Of a stretch of 21,970 bases of DNA, positions 5,207 through 20,508 are shown piece after piece. Where the stretch lies: the sequence record NZ_CP014059.2, one strand, 5' to 3'. Origin of the DNA: a plasmid. The number at the start of each line of letters is the position of its first letter. The stretch's first letter is position 1. The notes beneath the pieces were generated by a model. That model was not told the DNA's origin, searched no databases, and saw only the letters and a list, made by a program, of their open reading frames with translations. The translations under genes were made by a program, and so were the position numbers.

Positions 5207-5240
5207 GCCGCCCCTGATGGGGGGATGAACACCAAGGGAA

Positions 5241-5414: not shown

Positions 5415-5425
5415 TGGTGGGCCGG

Positions 5426-6346: not shown

Positions 6347-6368
6347 GGCATCGGCTCCGGTGGATAAG

Positions 6369-6624: not shown

Positions 6625-6637
6625 TTTAGCGGCTAAA
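6625..6637. promoter_or_regulatory. KorB operator (OB) TTTAGCGGCTAAA
   Basis: Exact OB consensus. It lies about 280 bp upstream of the kfrA start and immediately 3' of the small gene 6640..6948. Confidence 0.8.
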
Positions 6638-6639
6638 AA

Positions 6640-6948: not shown

Positions 6949-6949
6949 G

Positions 6950-7280
6950 ACAACACCCCGGCGAGCTGGACGAGGGAGCCGCCCTTCGGGCGGCGGGCTA
7001 CTCCGGGCCTTCGGCCCCTCCGCGCCGTTCCGGCGCTGCGCGGCCCGTGGATAACTTGCAAGCAAGTTACCCACCGCCCTTGCCGGCTACTCGCGTTATA
7101 TAAACGCAGGGGGCTACTCCGGCCTACGGCCGAGGCGGACAAGCCGCTAGGCTTCGCCATTAGTAATACGGACGGACTTGTCTCAAGCATTGTGGCCGCC
7201 CTCGTCACTTCCGGCGATGCTGGCCAGGTCGGCCGCCTGGGCCTGTAATACGGATGGACTTGTCTCACTCGCCGGCGCGG
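6950..7280. other. Candidate vegetative origin (oriV) / rep-proximal repeat region
   Basis: It contains a UUCG-loop hairpin at 6978-6994. It has a 21-22-bp direct repeat GGGCTACTCCGG(G)CCT(T/A)CGGCC at 6995-7016 and 7111-7131. A DnaA-box-like cGTGGATAA sits at 7046-7054, next to the palindrome TAACTTGCAAGCAAGTTA at 7052-7069. An A+T palindrome GCGTTATATAAACGC is at 7093-7107. A 23-bp direct repeat GTAATACGGA(C/T)GGACTTGTCTCA at 7163-7185 and 7245-7267 overlaps the 3' end of rep. Confidence 0.4.
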
Positions 7281-8565
7281 CTGGCTTGCCAGCTCGATAC
7301 CAGCTCGCCCGGCTCATACCGAGGGCTTCCCAAGGCTTCTGCCGGCTCAAGGAGCGGCTTTCGTAGGTTTGCCGATCTACCGCCCCAGCAGCCCGCCGGC
7401 GGGCCGTGTGGCGCTCTCTGTCGCGCTCCTTCGCCATATCCGAGCTGATGAGCGTGCGGAGCTTGCGCTGTTCCTCGTCGGTGATCTGGAACAGGCTGAT
7501 GATGGTGTCGTTCTTGGGCGTGTAGAGCGGGGAAAGCTGCTTGCCGCCGAACTCCACTTTCTCGCCGGCCTCGTGCGCCTTTGCCTTGGCGTACAACGTC
7601 ATCAGCTCCTTGGAGCGATACGACCAGGCCGGATCAAGCTCGCCGGCCAGCGCGGCCGCCTCGTGGTACATCTGCCCGCTGTGCGTAGCACCAGACAGCA
7701 GCAGGAAGTTGAGACGCCAGAAAAGATGCTGCATCCGCTCGCCTTCCCTGACGCCACCGCGCAGCTCGGCCAGCTTGCGCAAGTCCTCCAGGCGATCCCA
7801 TGCGAGCTGCCGACCGGAGAAGCCGCGCAGGTTGTCGGCCTTGCCGCCTGGCAATAGCTTGAGCTGCCGGCGTTCGGCACGGTCGCGGCGTTGCTGCTCG
7901 ATGTCCCAGCGGGCTACTGGCAGCAGCATTTCAGCCAGGTACTCGAAACCGTAGCGGACGGGCTGGCCGTCCTGGCCGTGCTCGACATGCACCACGCGGC
8001 ACACATCGCCGCTCTTGGTATTCACGGTGCTGACCAGGCGCAGCACGCGGCTTGCGTCCTTGGCCTGGGGGTCGGCGCCGAGGCCGGCCAGGCGATCGAC
8101 AAGATACCGCTGGCAGGCGTTCCAGCGCGGCAGCGCCTGGCGCGGCAAGGTGCCGTCCAGCAGCCACTTGGCTTGTATGCCGCGGCCGCTATAGACCAGC
8201 AGCGAGGGCGTGGGGATGCCTTCCTGGGCGCAGTGGTACAGCACGGTGGCCGCCAGTTGCTCCGGCGTCCTGCCGGTGGCCCACGGCTGCCGGTAGGTGT
8301 CCAGGTCGGCGAACAGCAGCCCGACACGCGCCAGATTCACCACGCGCCGGTTAGGGCGCATGAACTCGGCCTGCGTCAGCCAGGTGTCGCGGGTCTGATC
8401 GACCATGCCCAAGATCGTGGGCATGTCTGTGAGCCTGTATGAGTCTTGCCGCTTGTCCTTCCCTACCGCGACCAGGAGCGAGAAAAAGCCCGTCCTGGCC
8501 GTGTCATGGTAGGTGCCGGCCTCGTCGGCCGGCTCGAACAAGGCAAGTTGTGCCTGTCCTGCCAT
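7183..8565 (-). CDS. Replication initiator with archaeo-eukaryotic primase-polymerase (PrimPol) motifs (about 460 aa from the ATG at 8565); not TrfA
   Basis: PrimPol motif I is VGLLFADLD, motif II is YSGRGIQAKWLL and motif III is VLRLVSTVNTKSGDVCRVV. N-terminal QLALF resembles the QL[SD]LF beta-clamp motif. An AAGGGG Shine-Dalgarno lies upstream. The promoter region carries a KorA operator. Confidence 0.6.
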   Translation of the reverse strand: MAGQAQLALFEPADEAGTYHDTARTGFFSLLVAVGKDKRQDSYRLTDMPTILGMVDQTRDTWLTQAEFMRPNRRVVNLARVGLLFADLDTYRQPWATGRTPEQLAATVLYHCAQEGIPTPSLLVYSGRGIQAKWLLDGTLPRQALPRWNACQRYLVDRLAGLGADPQAKDASRVLRLVSTVNTKSGDVCRVVHVEHGQDGQPVRYGFEYLAEMLLPVARWDIEQQRRDRAERRQLKLLPGGKADNLRGFSGRQLAWDRLEDLRKLAELRGGVREGERMQHLFWRLNFLLLSGATHSGQMYHEAAALAGELDPAWSYRSKELMTLYAKAKAHEAGEKVEFGGKQLSPLYTPKNDTIISLFQITDEEQRKLRTLISSDMAKERDRERHTARRRAAGAVDRQTYESRSLSRQKPWEALGMSRASWYRAGKPAAPASETSPSVLQAQAADLASIAGSDEGGHNA

Positions 8566-8630
8566 AACCCCTTCCCGCACGGAATCCGCGCGTGACTCTT
8601 GCCATTGAAGGGGTCAGGCCGTAGAATGAG

Positions 8631-8642
8631 GTTTAGCTAAAC
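8631..8642. promoter_or_regulatory. KorA operator (OA) GTTTAGCTAAAC in the rep promoter region, flanked by 10-bp inverted repeats GAATGAGGTT (8624-8633) / AACCTCATTC (8668-8677)
   Basis: Exact 12-bp IncP-1 OA consensus, 66-77 bp upstream of the rep ATG. No korA gene is present in the window. Confidence 0.8.
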
Positions 8643-8730
8643 AGTCGTGGGTGCGGTTGAACCCATAACCTCATTCATCGGCTGTCGTGTCTATCAGCTC
8701 GCCAAAGCTGGTAGGCCCGGAACCCCCGCC

Positions 8731-8766
8731 AAAGCCCCGTCGCCAAACGGGGCTTTTGCATTTTTA
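8731..8766. terminator. Rho-independent terminator hairpin AAAGCCCCG-tcgccaaa-CGGGGCTTT followed by TGCATTTTTA; bidirectional
   Basis: Perfect 9-bp stem and a T tract. It lies at the 3' end of the minus-strand gene 8764..9078 and separates that gene from the rep promoter. Confidence 0.6.
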
Positions 8767-9078
8767 CGGCTCGATGCCGGTGCCACCCAGCAACTCGCCA
8801 CCTTTGCGGGTCAGCGTCTTGGGCTTCCACCCGGCCACGTCCGCCTCGAAGCGGTAGATGCCGTGCTGAATCAGCAACGACGCCGCCGCGTCAATCGTGC
8901 GGAAGTAGCGGGGGCCGCCCCGATACTGCCCAAGGATGCGATTTTCTCCGCCGATCCGAAGCGCCAGAACCAGGCCCTTCTCTGCAACGGTGACAGTCGC
9001 ACCCTGTACGCCGCCCACCAAAACGACCTCCTTAAATGCGGTCGGATTGATGACAGCCTTTGAATCAAACGTAATCAT
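8764..9078 (-). CDS. Hypothetical protein (104 aa), function unknown
   Basis: Real-gene codon bias. Its own promoter region (9079-9161) has a CATAAT -10 and overlaps the CTAGCTGCTA motifs. A terminator lies downstream. The opposite-strand ORF 8647..9063 has poor codon usage. Confidence 0.5.
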   Translation of the reverse strand: MITFDSKAVINPTAFKEVVLVGGVQGATVTVAEKGLVLALRIGGENRILGQYRGGPRYFRTIDAAASLLIQHGIYRFEADVAGWKPKTLTRKGGELLGGTGIEP

Positions 9079-9140
9079 GCCCCACCTTCGCAGCAGTGTC
9101 CAGCATTAACGAAAAATGCAGGTGTCGGTTTTCGATTATG

Positions 9141-9172
9141 TAGCTGCTACCTAGCAGCAAACTAGCTGCTAG
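9141..9172. promoter_or_regulatory. Three alternating-orientation copies of the TAGCTGCTA motif (TAGCTGCTAcCTAGCAGCaaaCTAGCTGCTAG); putative operator
   Basis: It overlaps the parG stop and the promoter of gene 8764..9078. The same motif is at 2153-2180 and 10131-10141. Confidence 0.5.
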
Positions 9173-9491
9173 ATTGTTCGTAATGGTCAAGGGCCTTTTC
9201 CAGTATCTCGACCAGCAGCACACCTTCACGCTGCGCCAGGGCGCGGATGCGGGCATCCCATTCCGGCGTCACCCGCGTGGCGAACTGCACCGTGCGGTTC
9301 GTCTTGCGGGCGCTCCGGCCGTCGATCTTCTTGGCCGCCGGCGCTTGCGGTGGTGGGTTGGCGGCGGCCGGCCTGGCTACCGGTGCAACCTCCGGCGCGG
9401 TCAGGTTCGTGCTGGCCTCGTCCAGCGTCGGCGGTGCGCCCAGCTCGTCGCGCCGGCCTTTCAATTTCTTGAGCTTGGATACGTCAGCCAT
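9162..9491 (-). CDS. parG: ParG-like ribbon-helix-helix centromere-binding protein (109 aa) with a flexible basic N-terminal tail
   Basis: C-terminal RHH is RTVQFATRVTPEWDARIRALAQREGVLLVEILEKALDHYE. It overlaps the upstream parA by 8 nt. Confidence 0.7.
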   Translation of the reverse strand: MADVSKLKKLKGRRDELGAPPTLDEASTNLTAPEVAPVARPAAANPPPQAPAAKKIDGRSARKTNRTVQFATRVTPEWDARIRALAQREGVLLVEILEKALDHYEQSSS

Positions 9492-10116
9492 TTGTCACCC
9501 GGTCGATGAGCGATTGAATGAGTGTGTCGGCCCGCTCGTTCAGGCCCGCAAAGCGGGTTTCTGTGATGCTGTGGCCGGTGTTTTGCGCCTGGCGGTAGGC
9601 CGGCCGGTCGCGCAAGCTCCCATCCAGGACGGTGTAGCCGGCCTGCTGTAAATAGACCCGCGCCGCGACCTCTTCCGCCGGCGTGCCGATGCGGTTGAGG
9701 GCGAACGCCAGGCGGTCGTTCGGGACACCGGCCTTCGTCAGCGCGTGGAACTCGCGCACGGCCGGAATGAGGTCATCCCTCGATGCGCCGGACGGCTGCA
9801 CGATCAAATCGGCAGCGCGGGCTATGTCGAGCGTCGCCGAGCTGGTGCGGGCCGGCCCGTCGATGATGAGAAGGTCGTAACCCTTGGCCGCTTCCAGGGC
9901 CTGCGCGGCCGTGGCGAACGCCTCGACGGACACCACGGGTTCAATGCCCTGGGAAAGCCGCAGGCGGTGCCAATCGACAGCAGTTCCCTGCTGTGTATCC
10001 AGGTCTGCTACCTTCACGCGCAAGCCGCCGGCGGCCGCTTCGCGTGCAAGGGCACGCGCCAGGGTGGATTTCCCTACGCCGCCCTTCTGTGAGACGAATG
10101 CGACAATCGCCGCCAT
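9484..10116 (-). CDS. parA: Small ParA/ParF-type partition ATPase (210 aa)
   Basis: Deviant Walker A VSQKGGVGKST. The size and the parA-RHH operon structure match type Ib partition systems. Confidence 0.85.
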   Translation of the reverse strand: MAAIVAFVSQKGGVGKSTLARALAREAAAGGLRVKVADLDTQQGTAVDWHRLRLSQGIEPVVSVEAFATAAQALEAAKGYDLLIIDGPARTSSATLDIARAADLIVQPSGASRDDLIPAVREFHALTKAGVPNDRLAFALNRIGTPAEEVAARVYLQQAGYTVLDGSLRDRPAYRQAQNTGHSITETRFAGLNERADTLIQSLIDRVTNG

Positions 10117-10124
10117 AATTTAGC

Positions 10125-10192
10125 CCCTATCTAGCTGCTAGGTAGCAACGATTATAAGATAGAAGCTAGATACAAGATAGTAGCTAGATAGA
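10125..10192. repeat. Centromere/operator-like array upstream of parA: CTAGCTGCTAG, then repeated AGATAG and CTAGATA units
   Basis: Clustered short direct repeats lie between the parA start (10116) and the KorB operator. A TATAAT -10 (10151-10156, minus strand) is embedded in them. Confidence 0.5.
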
Positions 10193-10193
10193 T

Positions 10194-10206
10194 TTTAGCC
10201 GCTAAA
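10194..10206. promoter_or_regulatory. KorB operator (OB) TTTAGCCGCTAAA
   Basis: Exact consensus. It overlaps the resolvase stop codon and lies 78 bp upstream of the parA start. Confidence 0.8.
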
Positions 10207-11107
10207 GTTTGCGCCGCCGCGCCCGCTCGGCGTCTGCCAGGTCGCCGGGCCACGTCGCCAGCTCGTCATCGGTGAGGGCCGCCAGGATTTGCGGCAGGTT
10301 TTGGGTTCGGTACGGGGGCATCGGCAGATCGGCGACTGGGCCTTCATCGTCCAGAAAAGCCGGCTCGGGCAGCTCGGCCGCGCCCTGCTCCACGTCGGCC
10401 GCCGCGCCGGCGTCGGCCTCGGTCAATGCGTCCTCCACGAAAGCGCCATGCCTGGCCGCCTCGGCCCGGCTCATGTCACGGCTGGCCCAAATCCGTTTGA
10501 CCTGGGCCACGCTGCACCCGGCCAGCTTGGCAGTCTCCGCGATGCTCTGGCCGATGCTGCGCAACGCGATCACCTGGGCGCGCAGCTTCGGATCGGCCCG
10601 CCGGCCCTTGTAGCGGCCGTCCCGCTTCGCCAGCTCGATGCCCTGGCGCTGCCGCTCGCGCCTGTCCTCGTAGTCGTCGCGGGCCATCTGTAGGGCCAGC
10701 TTCAAAAGCATGTCCTGGACGGATTCCAGGACGATCTTGGCGACGCCCTGGGCCTCGGCCGCCAGGTCGGATAGATCGACCACGCCAGGGACGGCCAGGC
10801 GCGCACCCTTGGCCCGGATCGAGGCCACCAGGCGCTCGGCCTCGGGCAAGGGTAGGCGGCTGATGCGGTCGATCTTCTCGGCAATGACCACCTCGCCCGG
10901 TTGCAGGTCGGCCACCATGCGCAGCAGCTCGGGCCGGTCAGCGCGTGCGCCGCTGGCTTTCTCGCGGTAGATGCCGGCGACGTAGTACCCGGCGGCCTTC
11001 GCGGCCGTGATGATCCCTTCCTGGCGTTCAAGGTCTTGCGCGTCGGTGCTGACGCGCAGATAGACCCGCGCCACCATCGGCGCGGCTGCTGGCTTCGTCC
11101 TGCTCAT
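10202..11107 (-). CDS. Serine recombinase / resolvase (301 aa from ATG 11107, AAGGAG Shine-Dalgarno) with a long acidic C-terminal extension
   Basis: N-terminal catalytic motif YLRVSTDAQDLERQ. The HTH is GQSIAETAKLAGCSVAQVKRIW. It is divergent from the TA module across the res region, like the RK2 par/mrs layout. Confidence 0.85.
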   Translation of the reverse strand: MSRTKPAAAPMVARVYLRVSTDAQDLERQEGIITAAKAAGYYVAGIYREKASGARADRPELLRMVADLQPGEVVIAEKIDRISRLPLPEAERLVASIRAKGARLAVPGVVDLSDLAAEAQGVAKIVLESVQDMLLKLALQMARDDYEDRRERQRQGIELAKRDGRYKGRRADPKLRAQVIALRSIGQSIAETAKLAGCSVAQVKRIWASRDMSRAEAARHGAFVEDALTEADAGAAADVEQGAAELPEPAFLDDEGPVADLPMPPYRTQNLPQILAALTDDELATWPGDLADAERARRRKL

Positions 11108-11125
11108 TCTGGCTCCTTTGGGCAT

Positions 11126-11181
11126 ACCTGAATGCGCCTATCGTAGCCCGGAAGGCTCATTTATCAAAGAACGATCTATAT
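11126..11181. promoter_or_regulatory. Left part of the split res / divergent promoter region (the right part is 19292-19413)
   Basis: Related subsequences ATGCGCCTAtcgTAGC (left) and ATGCGCCTAGCTC (right) flank the Tn402-like insertion. The region lies between the resolvase and the divergent TA operon. Confidence 0.45.
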
Positions 11182-11337
11182 GTGTCGTTTTCAGAAGACG
11201 GCTGCACTGAACGTCAGAAGCCGACTGCACTATAGCAGCGGAGGGGTTGGATCCATCAGGCAACGACGGGCTGCTGCCGGCCAAAAGCGGTCTCTGGTCC
11301 CCCGTGTCCGGTCTTGACGACGAGGCACCGTAGTAGT

Positions 11338-12225
11338 TTAGAACCGGAGGGTTTCGCCATCCTCGGGAATCAGCACCCGTTGCTCAATTTTATGGTCTTG
11401 CACAAACTCACGCAGGGCCTTGCGGGTGAGTGACATGTGGTTCACCGCATCCATGTGCACGGCCACGATGGCCGCATGGGGCGCTGCCTTGGTGGCCTGG
11501 AGTGTGTCCTGCTTGCCCATGATGATGGGATGCTCCTCAAAGCCACTCACGAGCGCGCTCCCTGTGTTGAGGATCACCACGTCGGGCTTGTGCAGCTTCA
11601 GTGCCTGATCCACTTCCGGACGCCACACCGTGTCCCCCGCCACGTAGACCGTCTTTGCCTGCGGCGCCGCAAACACGACCCCCATGACCGGGCCCATGAA
11701 CGCCGCACGCGCGGGGTCGGCAAACCACAAATCCGTGCCGTGCTGACCGCCGGTCCTGCTCAGCTTCACACCCTTGAAGGTGGTGGAGCCGGTGAGCACG
11801 CGGACGTCCTGGAAGCCTTGGCTGCGAATGAGCTTGGCATCCGCTTCGTTCTGCGTGAAGACCGGCAGGCTCTTGGGGATCGCCTTTTGAGCGGCCTCAT
11901 CCCAATGGTCTGTATGGGTGTGGGTCACGACCACTGCTTCCACGCTGTCCAGCACATCCTTCACTGAAAAGGGCAGCGCGACCAAGGGGTTTCTCAGTTC
12001 GCTGCGGTAAGTGCCCGGGAAGCCGGGGAACGCCCCTTGGTCCGACAGCATCGGGTCGACCAGGAAGGTCGTGCCAGCAAAGTCGATCTTCACCGTGGCG
12101 TTACGGATCTGCTGCACTTTGACCGAGGTGCCGGTGACGGTTGCCGGTGCAGACCAGGCGGTTGCCGCAAAGGCGCCCAGCGACAGCGAGACCAGCAGGG
12201 GAGTGAAAGCTTTCATCGAGAACAT
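11338..12225 (-). CDS. Secreted MBL-fold metallo-hydrolase (start ATG 12225 or 12216)
   Basis: HxHxDH motif VVTHTHTDHWD. Signal peptide MKAFTPLLVSLSLGAFAATAWSA. Confidence 0.7.
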   Translation of the reverse strand: MFSMKAFTPLLVSLSLGAFAATAWSAPATVTGTSVKVQQIRNATVKIDFAGTTFLVDPMLSDQGAFPGFPGTYRSELRNPLVALPFSVKDVLDSVEAVVVTHTHTDHWDEAAQKAIPKSLPVFTQNEADAKLIRSQGFQDVRVLTGSTTFKGVKLSRTGGQHGTDLWFADPARAAFMGPVMGVVFAAPQAKTVYVAGDTVWRPEVDQALKLHKPDVVILNTGSALVSGFEEHPIIMGKQDTLQATKAAPHAAIVAVHMDAVNHMSLTRKALREFVQDHKIEQRVLIPEDGETLRF

Positions 12226-12285
12226 GGGGGACACCCGCGTTGAGTTGAAGAGGCCTCCATGGTCGTGTCTCTCGCCCCTTTGTAG

Positions 12286-12306
12286 AATTGACCCAAGCGT
12301 CAATAT
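12286..12306. promoter_or_regulatory. Inverted repeat ATTGAC-N6-GTCAAT in the divergent MBL / GlxA intergenic region; putative operator
   Basis: Perfect 6-bp arms at 12287-12292 and 12299-12304, between divergent starts 12225 and 12341. Confidence 0.35.
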
Positions 12307-12340
12307 TCGAAAGAATTGGGCCACTTCACCCAGGAGCTTC

Positions 12341-13297
12341 ATGTCAAAGCGACTTCCCCTCGTGGCCCTCGTGAGCTACCCGCACTTCAGCCCGTTTCAC
12401 TTTGGCGTGCCGTTCTTGATCTTCAGTGCGCAGTTGCCCGAGCAGGCGCTGTTCGATCTGAAGATCGTCACGCCAGGCGGCACCGCGCTGGCGGCCGAGC
12501 GGGCCTTGTTCGTCCAACCCGATGGCGGGCTGGAGTTGCTGGCCAAGGCTGACATCGTCGTGATCCCCGGTTGGCATGATCTGGCCGAGCGTCCTGAGCC
12601 CGAGCTGATAGCCGCCTTGCGCCAGGCCCGCCAGCGGGGTGCCCATGTGGTGGGGCTGTGCTACGGCGCGTATGTCCTCGCCTATGCGGGCTTGCTGGAT
12701 GGCAAACGCGCATCCACACACTGGATGGCGGAGCAGGATTTCAAGCTGCGCTTTCCGCAAGTGCAACTGGACATGAATGCGCTGTATGTCGATGACGATG
12801 GCCTGATCACATCGGCGGGAACAGGGGCGGGCCTGGACTGCTGCCTCTACATCGTGCGCAAGTTCTACGGCCAGAAAACGGCCAACAAAGTCGCCCGGAT
12901 GATGGTGGTGCCGCCTCACCGCGAAGGAGGACAGGCTCAGTTCATTGAACAGCCGCTTGCCCCTTCCACGCAAGATGCCAGGATCAATCAGTTGCTGGAC
13001 CATTTGCGCCAGCACCTGAACCAGGTCCACTCGGTCGATGCGCTGGCCCAACGCGCCGCCATGAGCCGGCGCACGTTCACGCGCCACTTCAGCAAGGCGA
13101 CCGGCATGTCGTTGGGAGACTGGCTCATCAACGAACGCCTGCAGCGGACCCGAGAGCTGCTGGAAAGCACCACCTTGCCGGTGGAAGCCATCTCTGACCT
13201 GGTCGGATTTCAGAACCCGACCTCGCTGCGTCAGCACTTCAAGCGCAGAAACCAGGTCAGTCCCAGTGAATGGCGAAGAACCTTTGGGCGCGCGTGA
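12341..13297 (+). CDS. GlxA/FtrA-type transcriptional regulator: DJ-1/PfpI (class I glutamine amidotransferase-like) domain plus C-terminal AraC HTH (318 aa)
   Basis: AGGAG Shine-Dalgarno 5 nt upstream of ATG 12341. Nucleophile elbow VGLCYGAY. C-terminal AraC-type HTH. The long upstream ORF extension (from 12011) is rejected. Confidence 0.75.
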   Translation: MSKRLPLVALVSYPHFSPFHFGVPFLIFSAQLPEQALFDLKIVTPGGTALAAERALFVQPDGGLELLAKADIVVIPGWHDLAERPEPELIAALRQARQRGAHVVGLCYGAYVLAYAGLLDGKRASTHWMAEQDFKLRFPQVQLDMNALYVDDDGLITSAGTGAGLDCCLYIVRKFYGQKTANKVARMMVVPPHREGGQAQFIEQPLAPSTQDARINQLLDHLRQHLNQVHSVDALAQRAAMSRRTFTRHFSKATGMSLGDWLINERLQRTRELLESTTLPVEAISDLVGFQNPTSLRQHFKRRNQVSPSEWRRTFGRA

Positions 13298-13513
13298 GCT
13301 TTGTCTGCTCCGGGCGGGACAGCGTCATCCAGCTACCTGCGCCACTGACTCAGCCTTGTCCAGCCGGCCGCGCCGCACGAACAGACTGACCAGCCGTTGA
13401 CGGATCGCCACCTGGAGTTCCGCCAGTTGTTCCGGCGTGATGCGAATTTCACCCGCTCGACGAGCGCAACACCGGCGCCGCCTACGCCAAGAACCGGCGA
13501 ATCGAACTCAAAC

Positions 13514-14368
13514 TCACGAACCGCTGAGCGCCGCGTCACCGCGCTGCTGCGCCAGCCAGTCGCGCGGGGCGCAGCCCATGCGCACGCGGAAGGCGCGCGC
13601 CAGAGCGTTCGGGCTGCCGTAGCCGACGCGGTCGGCCACCACCGCCACCGGCCGCCCCTGCTTGAGCAGGGTGCAACTGACGTTCATCCGCCAGTCGGCC
13701 AGATAGTCGCCCGGCGTGACGCCCACCGCGTCCTTGAACGCGGCGGCGAAGCGCGCGCGTGACATGCCCGCCTTCGCCGCCAGCGCCTCGAGCGACCACG
13801 CGGTCTGCGGCGCATCGTGCATGGCGGTTATGGCGCGCGCGAGTTTCGGGTCGGCCAGGCCCGCCAGCAGTCCGGTGGCGCCAAGCCGCCCATCCATCAG
13901 ATAACGCAGCAACTGGATCAGTAGCAACTCGCACAAGCGGTCGATGGCGGCCTGCCGACCGCACTGGTCGCGCTCGGCTTCGGCAAACAGCAACTCTAGC
14001 GTCGGCCCGAGGCCGGGCAAGTCCGCCAACGGAATCAGCAGCATCGACGGCAAGGCCATGGCCAACGGATTGCCCGTCGAAGCGCCCAGGTCGACCTCCG
14101 CACACAACTGCTCAGCGGTATCGCCGGGGGCGGCGACAAAACGATGCGACGCCACGCGCGGATAAAACAGCAGGCTCGGCTCGGTAACCAGCAGATCTTC
14201 ATGCACGGGCGAACGCGCCGTAATCGGGCCGCGCCGCACCAGATGGATATAGCCATGCGGCGCCGCGTAATGATGCTGCCCACAGAAGGCGCCGCTGTGA
14301 AAAACGCGCGCCGAAAGCGAGTAGTGCCGGAGCAAGCCGGCCAGTCGATCCGCCATTCCACTCTCCAT
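13514..14368 (-). CDS. AraC-family transcriptional regulator (N-terminal cupin-like domain plus C-terminal HTH); start 14368 or 14356
   Basis: C-terminal AraC HTH signature ..ARAFRVRMGCAPRDW... It is divergent from the AhpD-like / cyt P460 operon. Confidence 0.75.
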   Translation of the reverse strand: MESGMADRLAGLLRHYSLSARVFHSGAFCGQHHYAAPHGYIHLVRRGPITARSPVHEDLLVTEPSLLFYPRVASHRFVAAPGDTAEQLCAEVDLGASTGNPLAMALPSMLLIPLADLPGLGPTLELLFAEAERDQCGRQAAIDRLCELLLIQLLRYLMDGRLGATGLLAGLADPKLARAITAMHDAPQTAWSLEALAAKAGMSRARFAAAFKDAVGVTPGDYLADWRMNVSCTLLKQGRPVAVVADRVGYGSPNALARAFRVRMGCAPRDWLAQQRGDAALSGS

Positions 14369-14473
14369 ATAAGACGATAGGTTACGTATTTGATACTTTA
14401 CGTGCCATATCGTACCAAACAAAGGGCGATCATGCCCACGTGCTCTTGCACCTCACCCACTACGGAGATAGAC

Positions 14474-15007
14474 ATGACCCAAATCGCCCCCCTGACCATC
14501 GACACCGCTGACGCCGCTACCGCTGCCACACTCAAGGCCGTCAAAGCCAAGCTTGGCATGGTGCCGAACCTGTTCGCCACGCTGGCCCACGCGCCGGCGG
14601 CGCTCAATGGCTACCTCGGCTTGTCCGAAACGCTGGGCACCGGCCGCCTGAATGCCTCCCAGCGCGAGATCGTTGCGCTCGCTGCCGCTCAAGCCAATCG
14701 CTGCCAGTATTGCCTGAGCGCACACACCCTGATCGGCAAAGGTGCCGGACTGTCGGCAGAGGCCATCGCCGCGGCCCGCACCGGCCAGGCGGCCAACGCA
14801 CTTGACGATGCAATCGCCGGCTTTGCCCGCGCGCTGGTCGAGCAACGCGGCGTGGTGTCGGCCGACGCCATGGCCAACTACCGCCGCGCGGGGCTCGACG
14901 ACGGCCTGATACTGGAAGTGATCGCCAACGTCGCGCTGAACACGCTCACCAACTACACCAACCACATCGCCGACCCCACGGTGGATTTCCCCGTGGTCGC
15001 CGTCTGA
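14474..15007 (+). CDS. Carboxymuconolactone decarboxylase (CMD) / AhpD-like family protein (177 aa)
   Basis: GGAG Shine-Dalgarno 7 nt upstream of the ATG. CxxC..H core motif RCQYCLSAHT typical of AhpD/CMD. Confidence 0.7.
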   Translation: MTQIAPLTIDTADAATAATLKAVKAKLGMVPNLFATLAHAPAALNGYLGLSETLGTGRLNASQREIVALAAAQANRCQYCLSAHTLIGKGAGLSAEAIAAARTGQAANALDDAIAGFARALVEQRGVVSADAMANYRRAGLDDGLILEVIANVALNTLTNYTNHIADPTVDFPVVAV

Positions 15008-15034
15008 TCTCCATAGGCATATAAGGAGAACACG

Positions 15035-15583
15035 ATGAAAATCGCACTCACCGGCGCTCTGCTCGCCAGCGCCCTCGTCCTGCCACTGGCCGTCACGGCC
15101 GGCGACTTTTCGCCCTATGTGGACAGCCAGGGCGGCATCAGCCGCCCCACAGACTTCCGCACAAACTTCGTCCACCTGGGCTCATATGCGGTGTTGGACG
15201 AAAAATCCGCCTCTCGCGGCTTGCACGATGTGTACACCGAAAAGGCCTCGGCCGAGCACTACCGCAAGACCGGCAAGTTCTTGGACGGCGCCACGCTGGT
15301 GAAAGAGATCCGCAAGCTCGAAACCAGCGCCATGACCACTGGCAACCCTGTGGTCTAGGGTTCCGATGCGGCCGTGTGGTTCGTGATGGTCAAGGACGCC
15401 AAAGGCCGTTTCGCCAGCAACCCCTTGTGGGGCGACGGCTGGGGCTGGGCGCTGTTCAAGGCCGACGCCCCCGCCAAGAATGTCGCCGTCAGCTACGAAG
15501 CCGACTGCATGGGCTGCCATGTGCCGGCGGCCAAGACCGACCGCGTATTCATCCAGGGCTATCCGACACTGACCCAGCACTGA
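15035..15583 (+). pseudogene. Cytochrome P460 / c'-beta family hemoprotein interrupted by an in-frame TAG at 15356-15358
   Basis: AAGGAG Shine-Dalgarno. Signal peptide MKIALTGALLASALVLPLAVTA. The reading frame continues across the TAG into ..WFVMVKD... and the C-terminal heme motif CMGCH. Total length about 183 codons, typical for the family. Confidence 0.7.
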
Positions 15584-15656
15584 CTTGCTGCCGGGTTACG
15601 CTTCGCGCAGGATGGCACCTCCGTCCTGCGCGAGCCACCCTTTCCGGAAGCGCGCC

Positions 15657-16257
15657 ATGCCGACACTCGACGCCTTTCTGACCGACGTCCGCGCCTGCAC
15701 GCGCTGCGCACCGCATCTGCCACACGGCGTGCAGCCGGTCTTCCAGTTTCACCCGAGTGCGCCCATCCTCATCGCCGGCCAAGCACCGGGGGCCCGGGTC
15801 CATGCCTCAGGCGTGCCCTTCGACGACGCCAGCGGCGCGCGTCTGCGCGCCTGGCTGGGCGTGGACCGCGACACCTTCTACGACCCTACCCGCATCGCCA
15901 TTCTGCCCATGGGCTTCTGTTATCCGGGCACCGGCAAAAGCGGTGACCTGCCGCTACGCCCGGAGTGCGCCCCCCGCCTGGCGCGAAGCCTTCATGCAGC
16001 GTTTCGAGCGCCTGTCGCTGGTCATCGTGCTGGGCAGCTACGCCATGGACTACCACCTCGGTACTGGCAAGACGCCGCTCACCCGGGTGGTCGAAGCCTG
16101 GCGCGAGCACTGGCCGCAAGCGTTCCCCCTGCCTCACCCTAGCCCGCGCAACAATCGCTGGCTGGTGCGCAACCCCTGGTTCCAACAAGACGTGCTGCCC
16201 GCGCTGCAAGCACGCGTCCAGGCAGTCCTCACCGCCAACCCCAAGGAAACCCCATGA
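15657..16257 (+). pseudogene. Family-4-type uracil-DNA glycosylase-like gene with a +1 frameshift in a C6 run (15972-15977)
   Basis: Frame 3 gives MPTLDAFLTDVRACTRC..ILIAGQAPGARV..GFCYPGTGKSGDLPLRPECAP. Frame 1 continues AWREAFMQRFERLSLVIVLGSYA...LPHPSPRNNRWLV (HPSP motif). Deleting one C in the tgcgccccccgcctgg run restores a single protein of about 199 aa. Confidence 0.7.
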
Positions 16258-16372
16258 CCGACGACACCGCCGCCATTACCGAGCTGCTGCACAAGTACTA
16301 CGACACCCTGGCCTGGGCGAACGGAGACAGGCACCGGCTTTGGAGCGATGAACGACGGCTTCAGGTGCGGTA
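16254..16372 (+). pseudogene. Truncated SnoaL/NTF2-like fragment (39 codons)
   Basis: MTDDTAAITELLHKYYDTLAWANGD is the typical N-terminus of a SnoaL-like domain. ATGA overlaps the UDG stop. The ORF ends after 39 codons. Confidence 0.35.
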
Positions 16373-16440
16373 GCTGACGCCTGGGACCTCAATCACCGTA
16401 TGACCGGGTCGAAAGCGGTCCTTTCTCTGACAACATCGCC

Positions 16441-17325
16441 CTAGCCCGCACTCAACCCCCACAACACATCCAGCACATGTTGCGTAGGCCGCTCGACGTC
16501 CCCACCACGGTGGGCAATACCAAGTTGACGCCACAATAAGGGCTGTAATGGCCGCATGACGATCCTGGTATCGGGCAATGGCGTGGAGGCTTCATGCGGC
16601 AACAACGTCGCACCATAACCGGCCGCCACTAGGCTTTTGATCGCATCGTTGTAGTTCAGTTGAATACGCGGCGTGGGCTGCCGTCCATCACTGGCGAACC
16701 ACTCCGAGGTCAAGCGCGAAAGCCGAGTAGTTTTGTCATTCAGAATTAATGGCTGGGCGGCCAGCCAACCGGGGGTCACAACATCCGGGCATTCCCAGCG
16801 AGCCGGCAAGAAGGCCATGACCGGGTCCCGCCGCCATGGCTCGATCCGCAATTCCTTCACCGGGGTCTGTGGCAGCGCGACCAGACCGATCTCCAAAGAG
16901 CCCTCGGCAAGCTTCTTCAAAGTTTCCTGCGACGTGAGCACCGCGACCTGCACATCGATAGCGGGATGGCGTTGGCCCAACGTCTCCAAAGCTTGCGGCA
17001 TCAACTGTGCGATGGCCCCTGTGGAGGCACCCAGCCGCACACGCCCGGCCAAGCCCTGCACCTGACGCTCCACGTCCTCAAGCGCCTGCTCCGCATCCGC
17101 CAACAGGCGCCGCGCGCGCTCCACCAGCGTTTCTCCAATCGCCGAAGGCTGAATGCGCCCACGTGTGCGCGACAACAGCTTTCCGCCAACCCGCGACTCC
17201 AGGTCGGCAATATGCAAACTGACCGTGGGTGGCGCGAGGTGCAGCACACGGGCCGCCTCGGCAAACGAACCCAGGTCGGCAATGGCCACCAACGTGCGCA
17301 GACGGTCCAGGCTGATTTCGCGCAT
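16441..17325 (-). CDS. LysR-family transcriptional regulator (294 aa)
   Basis: N-terminal HTH LRTLVAIADLGSFAEAARVLHLAPPTVSLHIADLE and a C-terminal substrate-binding domain. Confidence 0.85.
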   Translation of the reverse strand: MREISLDRLRTLVAIADLGSFAEAARVLHLAPPTVSLHIADLESRVGGKLLSRTRGRIQPSAIGETLVERARRLLADAEQALEDVERQVQGLAGRVRLGASTGAIAQLMPQALETLGQRHPAIDVQVAVLTSQETLKKLAEGSLEIGLVALPQTPVKELRIEPWRRDPVMAFLPARWECPDVVTPGWLAAQPLILNDKTTRLSRLTSEWFASDGRQPTPRIQLNYNDAIKSLVAAGYGATLLPHEASTPLPDTRIVMRPLQPLLWRQLGIAHRGGDVERPTQHVLDVLWGLSAG

Positions 17326-17338
17326 GAGTCACTCCTTG

Positions 17339-17373
17339 TTCAGAAAAGCTGAATTTCATCGTTTAGAAATTCA
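17339..17373. promoter_or_regulatory. LysR-type T-N11-A box TTCAGAAAAGCTGAA (17339-17353), overlapping the palindrome TGAATTTC-N8-GAAATTCA (17350-17373)
   Basis: Immediately upstream of the LysR start (17325). Confidence 0.5.
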
Positions 17374-17420
17374 ACTTTTCCTATCTTAGCCCCTCACTGA
17401 AGATTGGAACTCCTGATTTC

Positions 17421-19148
17421 CTATGTCCGAGAGCATTCCATGGCAAGTCCTCTTATATTCATCGACGGCGACCACTCCTCGATCTGATCGAACGGTTTGG
17501 CCGGCGGCAGGTTGTCTGCCTGCGGGTCAGCCATGTCCACATCCGGCGGTATGGGCTTGGCCGGTGGCTCCGACGTCTTGAGGTGCTGGCGGCGATCAGC
17601 GTCGCGCCGCGCCTTGCGCGTGGCCTTCTGGGCGGTGGTCACGATCTCGCGCATCTGCCCGATCATGCGGAACAGCGCCGACTCGTCCACCTGCTCGCGC
17701 CCGAGCTGACGCAATTTGGCCAGCGCCTGGCGTTGTTCCCAGAGGGTGACGGCCGGATGGGACAAGGTGCGGTAGTGGATCTCCAGATAGTGCTGACCTT
17801 CCGGTTCCAGTACCCAGATGCGGCTGATGTCGCGCGGATCGCGCCGGATCAGGAAGGCGGGCAAGCGCTCGCGCCGGGCAATCCACGGCTTGAGGGCGTC
17901 GGCGTAGTAGTGGATGTGGTCGATGACAAAGCCGGTGCGGGTCAGGGTGCGGCGGATCACCGGCAGGAAATCGACCAAAAACGCGGTGGGGCGGGTAACG
18001 ACGGCCGGGACGCCAACGCGCTCCACGGCCTCGGCCCAGCGCGCGGCCGGCGGCTGGAGCAGGCCGTTGTGCACGGAGCCGTGATAGGTGCCTACCGCCA
18101 ACGCGAGCCAGCGCTCCAGCTCGCGCAGCGTCAGGGTGGCCATCTTCTCGGAATCGTACTCGCCGCGCTGGCCGGGATTGGAGAAGGTCGTCCCCGGTAA
18201 TTCGTCGTGGATCATCTGCATCGCCGTGCCGATGATCCGTTCCACGATGCCGCCGTAGTGCGGCTGGCCTGGTGGGCGATAGTCCAGCCGGATGCCATGC
18301 TGTTCGCAGCCACGGCGCAGCGCTTCGCTTTTGAACTCGGCCGCGTTGTCCAGATAGAGCAGCCTGGGCTTGCCGCTCATCGGCCAGTCCATTTCCACAT
18401 TCAGCCCTTCCAGCCAGGGCCGCTTGTCGCAGGCGGCATGCGCGAGGCATAGGCCGACCGAGACGGCGGACGGCGCTTCCAGCGTGACCACCATGCCGAG
18501 TACGCAGCGCGTGAACACGTCGATGGCGAGGGTCAAATATGGGCGGCCAATCGGTTGCCGGTCGCGCTCGTCGACCACGATCAGGTCGATGACGGTGTGG
18601 TCGATCTGCACCTGTTCCAGCGGCATGGTGACTTCTGGCGGAATGCCACCCGCGCCTTGCAAGGGACGGGCAGCGTCCTGCCCGCCCCGGCTGCGGGCTA
18701 TTTTCGCCGGGTGTAGTCCGGCAATCCGCTGGGCCACGGTGTTGCGCGCCGGCACCGGCAGCTTCTGGGTTTTGCACGCCTGCGCGACTTCGCGGTGGAA
18801 CGCCGCCAGGCTGCGTTTCTGCTTGGTCAGGAAGCGCTTTTGCAGCAGCTCGCGGATGATGCGCTCGACCGGTTCCGGCAAGCGCCCCTTGCCTTTGCCG
18901 CCGCCGGATCGGCCGGGCGTCAGGTCTGTTACCAGGCCAGTACCCTGCCGGGCGCGACGGATCAGGACATATACCTGTCGCCGGGACAGGCCCAGCGCTT
19001 GGGCTGCCTCATCGGCGGCTTCATGCCCGACCACCTCAAGCGCTGCCAGTGGCCCGATGATTTCCGTCCGGTGCCGGGCTTGCGCCCATGCCTCGTCGGG
19101 CAGGGTGGCCACGCCTTGCGCGGCAATCGGTGGAGTGTCTGATGTCAT
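17421..19148 (-). CDS. tniA: TniA (Tn402/Tn5053-family DDE transposase, TnsB/MuA-like), about 575 aa from ATG 19148
   Basis: MTSDTPPIAAQGVATLPDEAW...GLSRRQVYVLIRRARQG...QVQIDHTVIDLIVVD... is near-identical to Tn402/Tn5053 TniA. tniB, tniQ and tniR are absent downstream; the LysR gene follows directly. Confidence 0.92.
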   Translation of the reverse strand: MTSDTPPIAAQGVATLPDEAWAQARHRTEIIGPLAALEVVGHEAADEAAQALGLSRRQVYVLIRRARQGTGLVTDLTPGRSGGGKGKGRLPEPVERIIRELLQKRFLTKQKRSLAAFHREVAQACKTQKLPVPARNTVAQRIAGLHPAKIARSRGGQDAARPLQGAGGIPPEVTMPLEQVQIDHTVIDLIVVDERDRQPIGRPYLTLAIDVFTRCVLGMVVTLEAPSAVSVGLCLAHAACDKRPWLEGLNVEMDWPMSGKPRLLYLDNAAEFKSEALRRGCEQHGIRLDYRPPGQPHYGGIVERIIGTAMQMIHDELPGTTFSNPGQRGEYDSEKMATLTLRELERWLALAVGTYHGSVHNGLLQPPAARWAEAVERVGVPAVVTRPTAFLVDFLPVIRRTLTRTGFVIDHIHYYADALKPWIARRERLPAFLIRRDPRDISRIWVLEPEGQHYLEIHYRTLSHPAVTLWEQRQALAKLRQLGREQVDESALFRMIGQMREIVTTAQKATRKARRDADRRQHLKTSEPPAKPIPPDVDMADPQADNLPPAKPFDQIEEWSPSMNIRGLAMECSRT

Positions 19149-19376
19149 GCCCAAACCTCGCTTTGGTGCACACGAGTATTGAGCATAGTCGAGATTGGTG
19201 CAGACGACTCCTGATATTGGGCTGTCAGGAGCCGTATGCACACCAGGCGTTACATCCAGTCAGATGGTGCGGTCGTCTTCTGAAAACGACAATATGCGCC
19301 TAGCTCAAAACGCCAGCCTTAAAGAGCCTTTTCAAGACAGTTTCAGCGTGATGGACTTGGGGGCAGGGAAGGGCTA

Positions 19377-19403
19377 TTATCACTAGGTATTACCATGTGA
19401 TAA
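19377..19403. promoter_or_regulatory. Operator-like inverted repeat TTATCAC-N13-GTGATAA overlapping a TATTAT -10, upstream of the antitoxin gene
   Basis: Perfect 7-bp arms with an inner GGTA..TACC palindrome, 11 bp upstream of the antitoxin ATG. Confidence 0.5.
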
Positions 19404-19413
19404 GAGGCCCACT

Positions 19414-19686
19414 ATGGCAACGTCTCTCAAGATCGACGACACGCTGAAAGGTCGCGTCCAGCACCTCGCCAGCCAGCGCCGCCGCTCGCCCCACTGGATC
19501 ATGCTCGAAGCGATCCAGCAGTACGTCGAGCGCGAAGAAGCCCGCGAGAGCTTCAAGCAGGAAGCCTTGGCGTCCTGGGCGGCCTACAAGGAAACCGGCC
19601 GCCACCTGACCGGCCAGGAAGTTCGCACCTGGTTGAACACCTGGGGCACCAATGACGAAAGGGCGGTGCCTGAGTGCCACAAGTAA
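19414..19686 (+). CDS. parD: RHH (CopG-like) antitoxin of a ParE/RelE-type TA pair (90 aa)
   Basis: N-terminal RHH (SLKIDDTLKGRVQHLA). C-terminal ..TGRHLTGQEVRTWLNTWGTNDE.. is typical of ParE-partner antitoxins. It overlaps the toxin start. Confidence 0.7.
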   Translation: MATSLKIDDTLKGRVQHLASQRRRSPHWIMLEAIQQYVEREEARESFKQEALASWAAYKETGRHLTGQEVRTWLNTWGTNDERAVPECHK

Positions 19687-19967
19687 TCGTCACCGAAGGC
19701 GCGGCGGAAGGCTTGGAACGATGCCGGCGGTTCCTGGCCGTCAAGGCACCGGACGCCGCCAGGCGTGCCGGCCAGGCCATCGAGCGGCAATTCCTGCTGC
19801 TGGAGACGGCCCCGGACATTGGCCGGCCGTTCCCTGAAATGCCCGAGCTGCGCGAGCTGGTGATTGCCTTCGGGGATTCCGGCTATGTGGCCCTGTACCG
19901 CCACGAACCGGCCGACGATGCGGTGTATGTTCTGGCCTTCCGGCACCAGAAAGAGGCGGGCTACTGA
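19674..19967 (+). CDS. parE: ParE/RelE-superfamily toxin (97 aa)
   Basis: ParE-like pattern ..VALYRHEPADDAVYVLAFRHQKE... Translationally coupled to the antitoxin. It is divergent from the resolvase, as in the RK2 parDE arrangement. Confidence 0.75.
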   Translation: MPQVIVTEGAAEGLERCRRFLAVKAPDAARRAGQAIERQFLLLETAPDIGRPFPEMPELRELVIAFGDSGYVALYRHEPADDAVYVLAFRHQKEAGY

Positions 19968-20136
19968 TGACCACCAAGACCGTGAGCGCCGCCGTACCGG
20001 CGGCCGTGAAGGCCGAAGCTGCCGCTATCTCGGCCGCGCACGGCATGAGCATGGCCGCGCTGCTGCGCGAGCTGCTGGCCCGCGTAGCCGCCCGCGATGC
20101 TGAAACGCTGGCCTGGCTCAATAAGGCCCGCCGATG
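19968..20136 (+). CDS. Small RHH-like protein (56 aa), not in the ORF track; translationally coupled to parE and to the next gene
   Basis: ATG at 19968 abuts the parE TGA. Predicted strand-helix-G-x-S-helix pattern (KTVSAAVPAAVKAEAAAISAAHGMSMAALLRELLARV). Confidence 0.4.
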
Positions 20137-20508
20137 ACCGACCCGAAGAACCTGGAAAGCTGGCTGCATGAGAAAGCTGGCCCGGCCTATGACGCATTGA
20201 AGGCCGACCCGGCCCGCGCCGTCACGGCTGACCAGGTGCGCTACACGCTCGATGAGCTGCTGGCCGAAGCCGAAGCATCCGGCCAGTATCCATTGCCGCC
20301 TGAGCAACGCGAATGGGTGGATGCCCCGGCCGTTGGCCGTGAGCTGCTGCCCGAGGACTTGCAAACCGCCGAAGCTATAGCTGCGTTCCTGGCCGATGCC
20401 GAAACCACGGCCGACCCGGCCTATATCCAGCACGCCCGCGAAGTTGCGGCGCTGGCCAGCATCGCCATTTCTGGCGGTGCTGCAGGTGGATCTCATCGCC
20501 GGAAATGA
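20134..20508 (+). CDS. Acidic helical hypothetical protein (124 aa)
   Basis: ATGA overlap with the 56-aa ORF. Net charge about -10. No recognisable motif. Confidence 0.45.
   Translation: MTDPKNLESWLHEKAGPAYDALKADPARAVTADQVRYTLDELLAEAEASGQYPLPPEQREWVDAPAVGRELLPEDLQTAEAIAAFLADAETTADPAYIQHAREVAALASIAISGGAAGGSHRRK

Follow-up and report, generated by a model that had tools for sequence, protein, structure and literature searches.

The questions raised by this locus are what kind of mobile element has come to lie between a plasmid resolvase gene and the divergent toxin-antitoxin operon beside it, and whether its present interior arrived with the insertion. The window, a 21,970-nucleotide stretch of sequence record NZ_CP014059.2, contains the insertion in a plasmid of the pMATVIM-7 family (MOBP). 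Judged by its ends and gene content, the sequence at 11183-19291 belongs to the Tn5053/Tn402 family of res-site hunters, as a non-autonomous element of Tn6008 type. That it is such a res hunter, defective and lodged in a res hot spot, is almost certain; the route by which its interior was acquired is a matter of lesser confidence. Feature coordinates are collected in Table 1.

The element is 8109 bp long and is bounded on both sides by 25-bp inverted repeats of TGTCGTTTTCAGAAGACG type. IRi (TGTCGTTTTCAGAAGACGGCTGCAC; 11183-11207) is complementary to IRt (19267-19291) at 23 of 25 positions, a pair that ranks first among the inverted repeats of the region, and matches the IRi of Tn402 at 25/25. 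IRt is identical to that of a Tn5053-like element in plasmid p3-T1 and differs from the Tn402 IRt at 2 of its 25 positions. The flanking ATATG pentamers are identical, and the chance of such a 5-mer match is ~1/1024. The 101 bp of the i-end are 100% identical to Tn402 in R751 and to the pMATVIM-7 integron, with divergence beyond. The i-end has two predicted TniA-binding 19-bp repeats and the t-end three clear ones, and all matches to the repeat consensus of at least 14/19 in the 22-kb window are confined to the two element ends. The element, by these comparisons, is a hybrid of a Tn402-type i-end with a Tn5053-type tniA and IRt. An assembly artefact was ruled out, as independent records show the same junctions. 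A preliminary description had proposed a res-site hunter of the Tn5053/Tn402 family, flanked by an intact ATATG duplication, and both the ends and the duplication bear this out, as does the alignment to Tn402 and integron references, which places the i-side breakpoint at 101 bp. Its IRt position was correct, whereas its IRi (11182-11206) was one base off.

Table 1. Features of the element, its target and its flanks in the window
Feature	Position	Strand	Basis or remark
Plasmid serine resolvase, 301 aa	10202-11107	-	Pfam Resolvase 3.5e-20 and HTH_7
Left part of split resolvase-TA spacer (putative res)	11108-11182	.	Conservation, repeats, promoter scan
Left target duplication ATATG	11178-11182	.	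Single copy in empty X. cucurbitae site
i-end	11183-11283	+	IRi and two direct 19-bp TniA-type repeats (11189-11207, 11212-11230)
2014-bp segment not in Tn6008	11289-13302	.	BLAST breakpoints, junction sequences, Pfam
MBL-fold hydrolase	11338-12216	-	Pfam
AraC-type regulator with DJ-1/PfpI domain, divergent from MBL hydrolase	12341-13297	+	Pfam
AraC-family regulator (Cupin_6 and HTH_18), MN042 in Tn6008	13514-14356	-	Pfam, annotation of identical copies
Carboxymuconolactone decarboxylase/AhpD-family gene	14474-15007	+	Pfam CMD 1.4e-13
Cytochrome P460 pseudogene	15035-15583	+	TGG>TGA at 15357
UDG-superfamily gene, split over two frames	15585-16257	+	Frameshift near 15970
LysR-family regulator (WP_003465017-type)	16441-17325	-	Pfam, annotations
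tniA, 575 aa	17421-19148	-	Translation, tblastn, Pfam rve/Mu-transpos_C
argC remnant, first 32 nt, between tniA and LysR gene	17440-17471	+	Alignment with complete tni elements
t-end	19149-19291	-	IRt, Tn5053-type, and 19-bp repeats 19198-19216 and 19223-19241
Right target duplication ATATG	19292-19296	.	Direct match to left copy
Right part of split spacer	19297-19413	.	Holds TA operator-like palindrome
RHH (CopG/ParD-like) antitoxin	19414-19686	+	Pfam
ParE toxin	19674-19967	+	Pfam

The plasmid serine resolvase is presumed to be the target-site resolvase. Its ORF spans 10202-11125 on the minus strand, and an AAGGAG Shine-Dalgarno sequence, together with the annotation of the homologue in pHUSEC411like, sets the start at the ATG at 11107. 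From this ATG to IRi the distance is exactly 75 bp, in agreement with the preliminary description, which had also placed the insertion between the resolvase gene and the divergent TA operon. That operon, an RHH/ParE pair, lies opposite the resolvase gene across the spacer. IRi is thus the resolvase-proximal end, i.e. the preferred orientation of the family. An uninterrupted target, which the preliminary description had proposed to look for in relatives, is present in Xanthomonas cucurbitae plasmids, which match the joined flanks at 96.4% and have a single ATATG and direct ATGCGCCTA repeats 48 bp apart. In the window, one ATGCGCCTA copy lies in the left spacer part (11132-11140) and the other overlaps the right target duplication (19294-19302). 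A promoter scan found a promoter-like site for the resolvase on the minus strand of the left part (TTGATA 11167-11162, TACGAT 11145-11140), and the operator-like palindrome of the TA operon consists of GGGCTATTATCAC (19371-19383) and GTGATAAGAGGCC (19397-19409). A symmetry search of the spacer for res subsites returned no more than the direct pair of ATGCGCCTA copies and some weak dyads; the ~100 bp adjoining the resolvase ATG are conserved across four diverged backbones. Taken with the repeats and the clustered insertions, this conservation makes the spacer the putative res site. The insertion probably separates conserved parts of this res region, consistent with the earlier suggestion of a split site.

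In related pMATVIM-7-family plasmids, Tn402-family insertions occupy four adjacent positions within ~40 bp of the spacer, in both orientations and with the duplications GTAGT, CTATA, ATATG and TATGC (the last in two plasmids), and the spacer may therefore be considered a res-hunter hot spot. It had already been recorded as the variable region of these plasmids (PMC9501424). A coincidental position by the resolvase gene, through the low-frequency, resolvase-independent insertion described for Tn502 and Tn512, seems very improbable against this clustering, the preferred orientation and the fact that most other copies examined abut recombinase genes, even though random insertion is known in the family (PMC7765201) and one copy, in a Cupriavidus plasmid, lies inside a Tn21-type tnpA ~0.6 kb past tnpR and not in res proper. 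Independent hits on an identical 5 bp are also possible at a hot spot, a possibility that weighs against a single-hit history.

The tniA product consists of 559 aa of Tn5053-type TniA and a 16-aa read-through tail, SPSMNIRGLAMECSRT, the stop codon having been lost. Those 559 residues are all identical to TniA of the p3-T1 Tn5053-like element, while 495/559 (88.6%) are shared with Tn402 TniA, at 84.5% identity of the tniA DNA. The preliminary description was right that tniA is full length in this sense; it had the LysR gene following directly, but the argC remnant lies between them. The junction falls inside a 17/20 microhomology at 17455-17474; in p420352-strA, argC starts where the 32-nt remnant does and homology to the window stops at 17474. 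As read from these alignments, tniB, tniQ and tniR were lost in a deletion running from argC codon 11 to the tniB-start/tniA-stop region, an event that also cost tniA its stop codon and added the 16 residues. No molecule with both argC and tniB was recovered, and thus we infer the ancestor of the deletion. Both p420352-strA and pSE5419-2 run from IRi to LysR-argC and then into cargo full of IS elements, and in the stretches examined the far end has no tni genes.

In tblastn searches, TniB and TniQ of p3-T1 had no match anywhere in the window, and TniR matched only the plasmid resolvase, weakly (37% over 73 aa). The internal res and tniR, hallmarks of the family, are missing from the element. 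Without tniB, tniQ and tniR it would be movable only with helper tni functions, as the preliminary description had argued. IntI1 likewise had no tblastn match anywhere in the window. The ~100 bp shared with class 1 integrons next to IRi, in the absence of intI1 and attI, had been recognized correctly; the proposal that an integron was replaced by cargo was rejected, since there is no intI1/attI1 trace next to IRi, homology stops after 101 bp and the t-end, with its Tn5053-type tniA and IRt, is of a different lineage. In terms of sequence, there is no evidence for a former integron.

The gene order is IRi, AraC, AhpD/CMD, P460, UDG, LysR, tniA, IRt. On the strength of this order and of near-identity, the element is a variant of the already described and named Tn6008, and not new in kind. 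Tn6008 was reportedly presented as part of Tn6006/Tn6005 by Labbate, Chowdhury and Stokes in 2008 (J Bacteriol 190:5318). It also occurs in pOP-I (KY126370; Ghaly et al. 2017, PMC5460862), and our reference for it was that paper together with sequence identity to pOP-I and pABWA45_2. Both ends, the gene order, the argC'/tniA deletion junction and the 575-aa TniA are the same in Tn6008, which, two indel differences aside, is colinear with the window at 99.8-100% in pABWA45_2 and pOP-I (a single mismatch among the 4051 bases of 15241-19291). The prototype measures 5999 bp, whereas the window element has 2014 bp and 133 bp extra. In place of the 2014-bp segment, found also in the Cupriavidus and Comamonas copies, Tn6008 has ~36-49 other bases. 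The 133 bp (15108-15240) belong to the P460 pseudogene and are deleted from Tn6008; the window copy keeps them but has a nonsense codon. The two UDG Pfam halves (profile positions 4-79 and 81-141) lie in different frames, and the Cupriavidus copy, with one base fewer, has a single 199-aa ORF. Published Tn6008 resides inside Tn6006 with no duplication of its own, whereas the window copy is solitary, with its own 5-bp duplication.

Tn5053 is said to have been described by Kholodii et al. in 1995. The Tn5053-like element of p3-T1 has the same IRt, is ~99.8% identical to the window element in DNA from tniA to IRt, and occupies the same target site in the same orientation with the same duplication, in a near-identical backbone. 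The window element differs from Tn5053 in having no mer operon, tniB, tniQ, tniR or internal res, and a Tn402-type i-end instead of TGTCACTTTCAGAAGGCGACAGCAC. With Tn402/Tn5090, In0 and In2 it shares the first 101 bp at IRi, and with In0 and In2 also a tni module reduced to tniA, a res-region location and a 5-bp duplication; it differs from Tn402 and class 1 integrons in having no intI1 or attI1 and in 2/25 positions of IRt. The mer- and tni-defective Tn5053-family elements Tn6606 and Tn6607 resemble it in having both IRs, 5-bp duplications, the outer repeat IRo adjoining a resolvase gene, catabolic or orphan cargo and an inferred movement with tni functions in trans (PMC7765201). Their cargo and tni remnants are different, Tn6606 having only a 522-bp IRt-tniA' fragment as opposed to the whole tniA here. 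The rules of the family include the preferred orientation and the 5-bp duplication, and tniA-only In0 and In2 were moved by Tn502 functions in trans (PMC7765201).

Nine PLSDB plasmids and three genomes carry the identical argC'/tniA junction, in contexts that are unrelated. The scan of genome contigs with the junction yielded three contigs (Comamonas, Stenotrophomonas and a Sphingobium MAG), with 8-kb loci too short to span both ends. pAER57, pLM159.2 and pB13-200A carry the junction but are truncated or have no matching duplications, and so contribute further contexts and no footprints of transposition. A chromosomal origin of the cargo, suggested in the preliminary description, is not borne out, as most copies examined are on plasmids and the three genome contigs are assignable to neither plasmid nor chromosome. 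Among copies sharing the junction, the two indel characters (2014 bp, 133 bp) are found in all four possible combinations, a pattern that demonstrates exchange between copies.

In this family, TniA, TniB and TniQ form a cointegrate and are guided to a res site occupied by the resolvase of the target. The element would have arrived by this mechanism, leaving the 5-bp duplication and IRi adjoining the resolvase gene; both ends, with their TniA-repeat arrays, are predicted to be functional, and the whole tniA has been kept with its tail. Two near-identical sister plasmids, p3-T1 (Acidovorax) and pLH3.4, have the ATATG position and orientation in common with the window, with 1 mismatch in ~14 kb of flanks. 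At this site p3-T1 has a Tn5053-like element, complete at 8447 bp, that adjoins the cargo, and pLH3.4 holds a different interior with an IS6100 deletion. The window has segments missing from both (2014 bp, 133 bp), and the converse is also true. Because the sister plasmids hold other interiors at ATATG, the interior may have been swapped after a single insertion. The earlier picture of an element caught in the res site holds for the insertion but is uncertain for the arrival of the present interior. Beyond the core reading, we give about even credence to a history in which a single insertion at ATATG took place in an ancestor shared by the three plasmids, and the MBL segment, the 133 bp and the LysR-argC'-tniA junction were later imported by homologous recombination from another Tn6008-type copy.

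A long composite with a complete tni module (IRi, cargo, LysR, argC onward, Tn5053) could instead have inserted at ATATG and decayed entirely in situ, with no imported interior, through the argC/tniB deletion in the window plasmid and other deletions in p3-T1 and pLH3.4. The complete Tn5053-like element abutting cargo in p3-T1 and the Pseudomonas plasmids with a long IRi...LysR-argC version agree with such a course. We nevertheless consider it improbable, since the recurrence of one identical junction across unrelated contexts implies a single origin followed by spread, and deletions alone cannot connect plasmids with reciprocal segment differences.

Alternatively, an already defective 8.1-kb element may have transposed as a unit into ATATG, independently of the p3-T1 and pLH3.4 insertions, with TniB and TniQ (perhaps TniA) from a Tn5053, Tn502 or Tn402 helper in the same cell. 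The MBL-containing variant with the same junction, lacking only the 133 bp, is flanked in the Cupriavidus plasmid by a perfect GATCT duplication, and it recurs inside a serine-recombinase gene in Comamonas JL40; tniA-only In0 and In2, like Tn6606, are documented to be mobilized in trans (PMC7765201), and neighboring independent insertions indicate that the site is hot. Unit transposition would, however, need separate hits on the same 5 bp in the same orientation, in flanks one base apart in ~14 kb, and exchange between copies is evident; we regard it as possible but rather doubtful. The GATCT duplication fits unit movement of the defective form, an observation that sits uneasily with an interior swap.

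Taken as an example, the locus is ordinary: one more res-site hunter with a defective tni module, in a res hot spot of a plasmid, with little that is new. The pMATVIM-7-family hot spot also collects carbapenemase-bearing class 1 integrons. Tn6008, published only within the composite Tn6006, is here solitary with its own duplication, and the route by which it would have lost tniB, tniQ and tniR is a microhomology deletion between argC and tniB that also removed the tniA stop codon. Sister plasmids with different interiors between the same ends mean that target duplications, which outlast interior replacement by recombination, are no proof that the present interior transposed. We tentatively suggest that tniA-only Tn6008-type elements may have moved in nature as solitary units by means of resident Tn5053/Tn402 helpers, with an active 575-aa TniA, guided to unrelated resolvases. 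If so, these would be the pMATVIM-7-family plasmid resolvase, Tn21-type tnpR regions and the Comamonas recombinase gene; ATATG here and GATCT in Cupriavidus would be the footprints of two such movements, and the two copies would be the first DR-flanked solitary copies of Tn6008.

Both terminal inverted repeats carry ATATG on their outer side, so the element was delimited to 11183-19291, a span of 8109 bp. Its two arms, complementary at 23 of 25 positions, form the top inverted repeat of the region. The i-end has two direct copies of the 19-bp family repeat and the t-end three clear ones, with no further match of at least 14/19 elsewhere in the 22-kb window. The preliminary description had recognized IRi, IRt and the ATATG pair, all of which were found, although its IRi began one base too far to the left. 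It had also placed the insertion 75 bp upstream of the resolvase gene, with a divergent toxin-antitoxin (TA) operon on the other side. The operon is present, and IRi lies exactly 75 bp upstream when the resolvase start is set at ATG 11107, a choice supported by an AAGGAG Shine-Dalgarno sequence and by the homologue annotated in pHUSEC411like. Read from this start (10202-11107), the resolvase is a 301-aa protein with its catalytic and HTH domains fused in frame to an extra tail; in pHUSEC411like, the homologue has 245 aa and the tail is encoded downstream of it as a 74-aa ORF of its own. Several sister plasmids show no gene at this locus in PLSDB gene tables. Immediately before the antitoxin start is a TA operator-like palindrome, GGGCTATTATCAC-N13-GTGATAAGAGGCC (19371-19409), which the insertion left intact. 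Judging from annotated homologues in sister plasmids, a ptaRNA1-family type I toxin gene (~20000-20500) follows the RHH/ParE operon, so that two addiction systems adjoin the res region in the backbone.

Features of the element and its immediate neighbours (window coordinates)
Feature	Position	Strand	Remark
Serine resolvase ORF	10202-11125	minus	Resolvase and HTH_7 domains; left of element
Target duplication ATATG	11178-11182 and 19292-19296		outer side of each repeat
IRi	11183-11207		TGTCGTTTTCAGAAGACGGCTGCAC
MBL-fold hydrolase	11338-12216	minus
AraC/DJ-1 regulator	12341-13297	plus
AraC/cupin regulator	13514-14356	minus
CMD/AhpD	14474-15007	plus
Cytochrome P460	15035-15583	plus
UDG-superfamily gene	15585-16257	plus
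LysR regulator	16441-17325	minus
tniA	17421-19148	minus
IRt	19267-19291
RHH antitoxin	19414-19686		right of element, divergently transcribed
ParE toxin	19674-19967		right of element, divergently transcribed

Assignment of the element to the Tn402-type res hunters in the preliminary description was right. Megablast against plasmids and pairwise BLAST aligned it colinearly (99.8-100% identity) to a structure carried by E. coli pABWA45_2, two Citrobacter plasmids, Enterobacter cloacae pOP-I (KY126370) and P. mendocina pAER57. This structure was named Tn6008 by Ghaly et al. 2017, after Labbate et al. 2008; its order is IRi, MN042, ahpD, MN043-MN046, tniA, IRt, and it adjoins the integron transposon Tn6007 within Tn6006 and Tn6005 (PMC5460862). 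Compared with the 5999-bp Tn6008, the window has 2014 bp (11289-13302) containing the MBL and AraC/DJ-1 genes, where Tn6008 has ~36-49 unrelated bases, and retains 133 bp of the P460 gene (15108-15240) that Tn6008 has deleted. The P460 gene of the window is decayed by a nonsense codon (TGG>TGA at 15357), also present in the Pseudomonas plasmid p420352-strA, and the UDG gene by a frameshift that divides it between two frames, as in most copies. P460 is inactivated differently by copy, Tn6008 and most others having the 133-bp internal deletion. A Cupriavidus copy has one base fewer near 15970 and an intact 199-aa UDG ORF. The earlier view of the cargo as chromosomal was unsupported.

It had also been proposed that this cargo replaced a class 1 integron, given ~100 bp of integron-like sequence at IRi and no intI1. 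The likeness holds, as 11183-11283 (101 bp) matches two IRi ends at 100% identity, that of Tn402 in R751 and that of the pMATVIM-7 integron, and tblastn detected no IntI1 in the window; the replacement is unsupported. Past 11283, integrons, Tn6008 and the window each continue with a different sequence, so the shared stretch is the conserved functional i-end rather than what is left of an integron. The t-end (tniA and IRt), judged by sequence, belongs to the Tn5053 lineage. The element is a hybrid, and a stripped integron was rejected on these grounds. The 559-residue TniA is identical to that of the Tn5053-like element in p3-T1, a near-identical Acidovorax sister plasmid, and 88.6% identical to Tn402 TniA; DNA identity of tniA to Tn402 is 84.5%, and IRt equals that of p3-T1 and differs from Tn402 IRt at two positions. 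Alignment to Tn402 and integron references, as the preliminary description had suggested, thus ends the i-end homology at 11283 and places the t-end closer to p3-T1. The 8447-bp unit of p3-T1, with its own different i-end repeat (TGTCACTTTCAGAAGGCGACAGCAC), merRTPFADE and tniR-Q-B-A, was taken as Tn5053-like; Tn5053 carries this mer operon and has this length.

No tniB, tniQ or tniR is present in the window copy, which is therefore predicted to be non-autonomous and, as previously proposed, to depend on tni functions supplied in trans. In Pseudomonas plasmids such as p420352-strA, this IRi...LysR stretch is also present and runs on into argC and long cargo, and their homology to the window stops at 17474; complete tni elements match from 17455 rightward. 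The overlap is a 20-bp microhomology (17/20 identical) between argC codons 6-11 (ATATTCATCGACGGCGACCA) and the tniB-start/tniA-stop region (ATATTCGTCCACGGCTACCA). At the crossover the tniA stop codon was replaced (plus strand CTA to CGA, 17469-17471), TniA reads through for 16 extra residues to 17421, and a 32-nt argC remnant (17440-17471) separates tniA from the LysR gene. The full-length tniA reported earlier is hence extended, and not directly followed by LysR. The identical argC'/tniA junction recurs in 9 plasmids of PLSDB and in 3 genome contigs, so it arose once and then spread. We infer an ancestor with argC and tniB on a single molecule, of which no example was found among the sequences recovered.

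In this family, the resolvase of the target occupies a res site, and TniA, TniB and TniQ build a cointegrate there; this is resolved by TniR and the internal res with the target resolvase assisting. Duplications are of 5 bp, and IRo/IRi usually lies toward the resolvase gene (PMC7765201, summarising Kholodii 1995, Minakhina 1999, and Petrovski & Stanisich 2010). In0 and In2, with tniA only, move to resIncP with tni functions from Tn502 (PMC7765201). The window copy has all cis features of the family, preferred orientation included.

The joined flanks minus one ATATG match two 14-kb Xanthomonas cucurbitae plasmids without interruption (96.4% over 987 bp), so an empty site exists in relatives, where the preliminary description had proposed to look for it. 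The ~100 bp adjoining the resolvase ATG is conserved in four diverged backbones, and spacer conservation stops ~14 bases past the insertion point. Two direct ATGCGCCTA copies lie 48 bp apart in the intact site; the second is overlapped by the insertion at its left edge, so the interval between the copies has grown to 8.1 kb. On its own side of the insertion, the resolvase keeps a promoter-like site (TTGATA, 16-bp spacer, TACGAT). Junctions in related plasmids (the spacer cluster being noted for loci L010, L013, L014 and L015) place Tn402-family/class 1 integron insertions at four positions within ~40 bp of the spacer (window 11143-11183), in both orientations, with the duplications GTAGT (pMATVIM-7), CTATA (an Enterobacter asburiae plasmid), ATATG (the window, p3-T1 and X. 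perforans pLH3.4) and TATGC (an Achromobacter xylosoxidans plasmid and Serratia pSMC1). Conservation, repeats and the clustering of res hunters suggest that the spacer is a res site split by the insertion.

The backbone (ParA, ParC, resolvase, RHH/ParE, ptaRNA1, trbL-K-J, traI-J-K) belongs to the pMATVIM-7 family of MOBP plasmids. According to the article on this family, the stretch between the antitoxin and resolvase genes is where resistance regions are always located, a 'potential hotspot', and a term search of that text turned up neither a res site nor Tn402 (PMC9501424). Plasmids of the IncP-1 type share a further hot spot, beside traC: Tn402 IRt adjoins traC in R751 (39084-39115), and a truncated LysR-tniA-IRt remnant in X. 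vesicatoria pLM159.2 (5129-5160) ends 3 bp from that position.

The flanks of p3-T1 and pLH3.4 differ from the window by ~1 base in 14 kb, and at that ATATG site both plasmids also hold an element, oriented as in the window but with a different interior. In p3-T1 (4814-16376), a Tn402-type IRi and cargo fragment (AraC, CMD, P460, UDG') adjoins the complete 8447-bp transposon, analogous to Tn6006, and the ATATG duplication brackets only this composite; pLH3.4 has an IS6100-mediated deletion. Neither interior is derivable from the other through deletion alone. Among copies with the argC'/tniA junction, the 2014-bp and 133-bp characters are found in each of their four possible combinations, which shows homologous exchange between copies. 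For these reasons we favor, at about an even chance, a history in which a single res-targeted insertion at ATATG would have occurred in the common ancestor of the three plasmids, the interior of the inserted element later being replaced. An independent hit by the already-defective element, mobilised in trans, is a somewhat doubtful alternative that would fit two MBL-containing variants found elsewhere: one in a Cupriavidus plasmid, bracketed by its own duplication GATCT within a Tn21-type tnpA (this copy lacks only the 133 bp and has an added IS6100 composite), and one within a recombinase gene in Comamonas JL40. Recombinase genes adjoin most other copies examined as well. Overall, the element is a variant of Tn6008, a transposon named before; its location is a known hot spot, and its behaviour is that established for the family.
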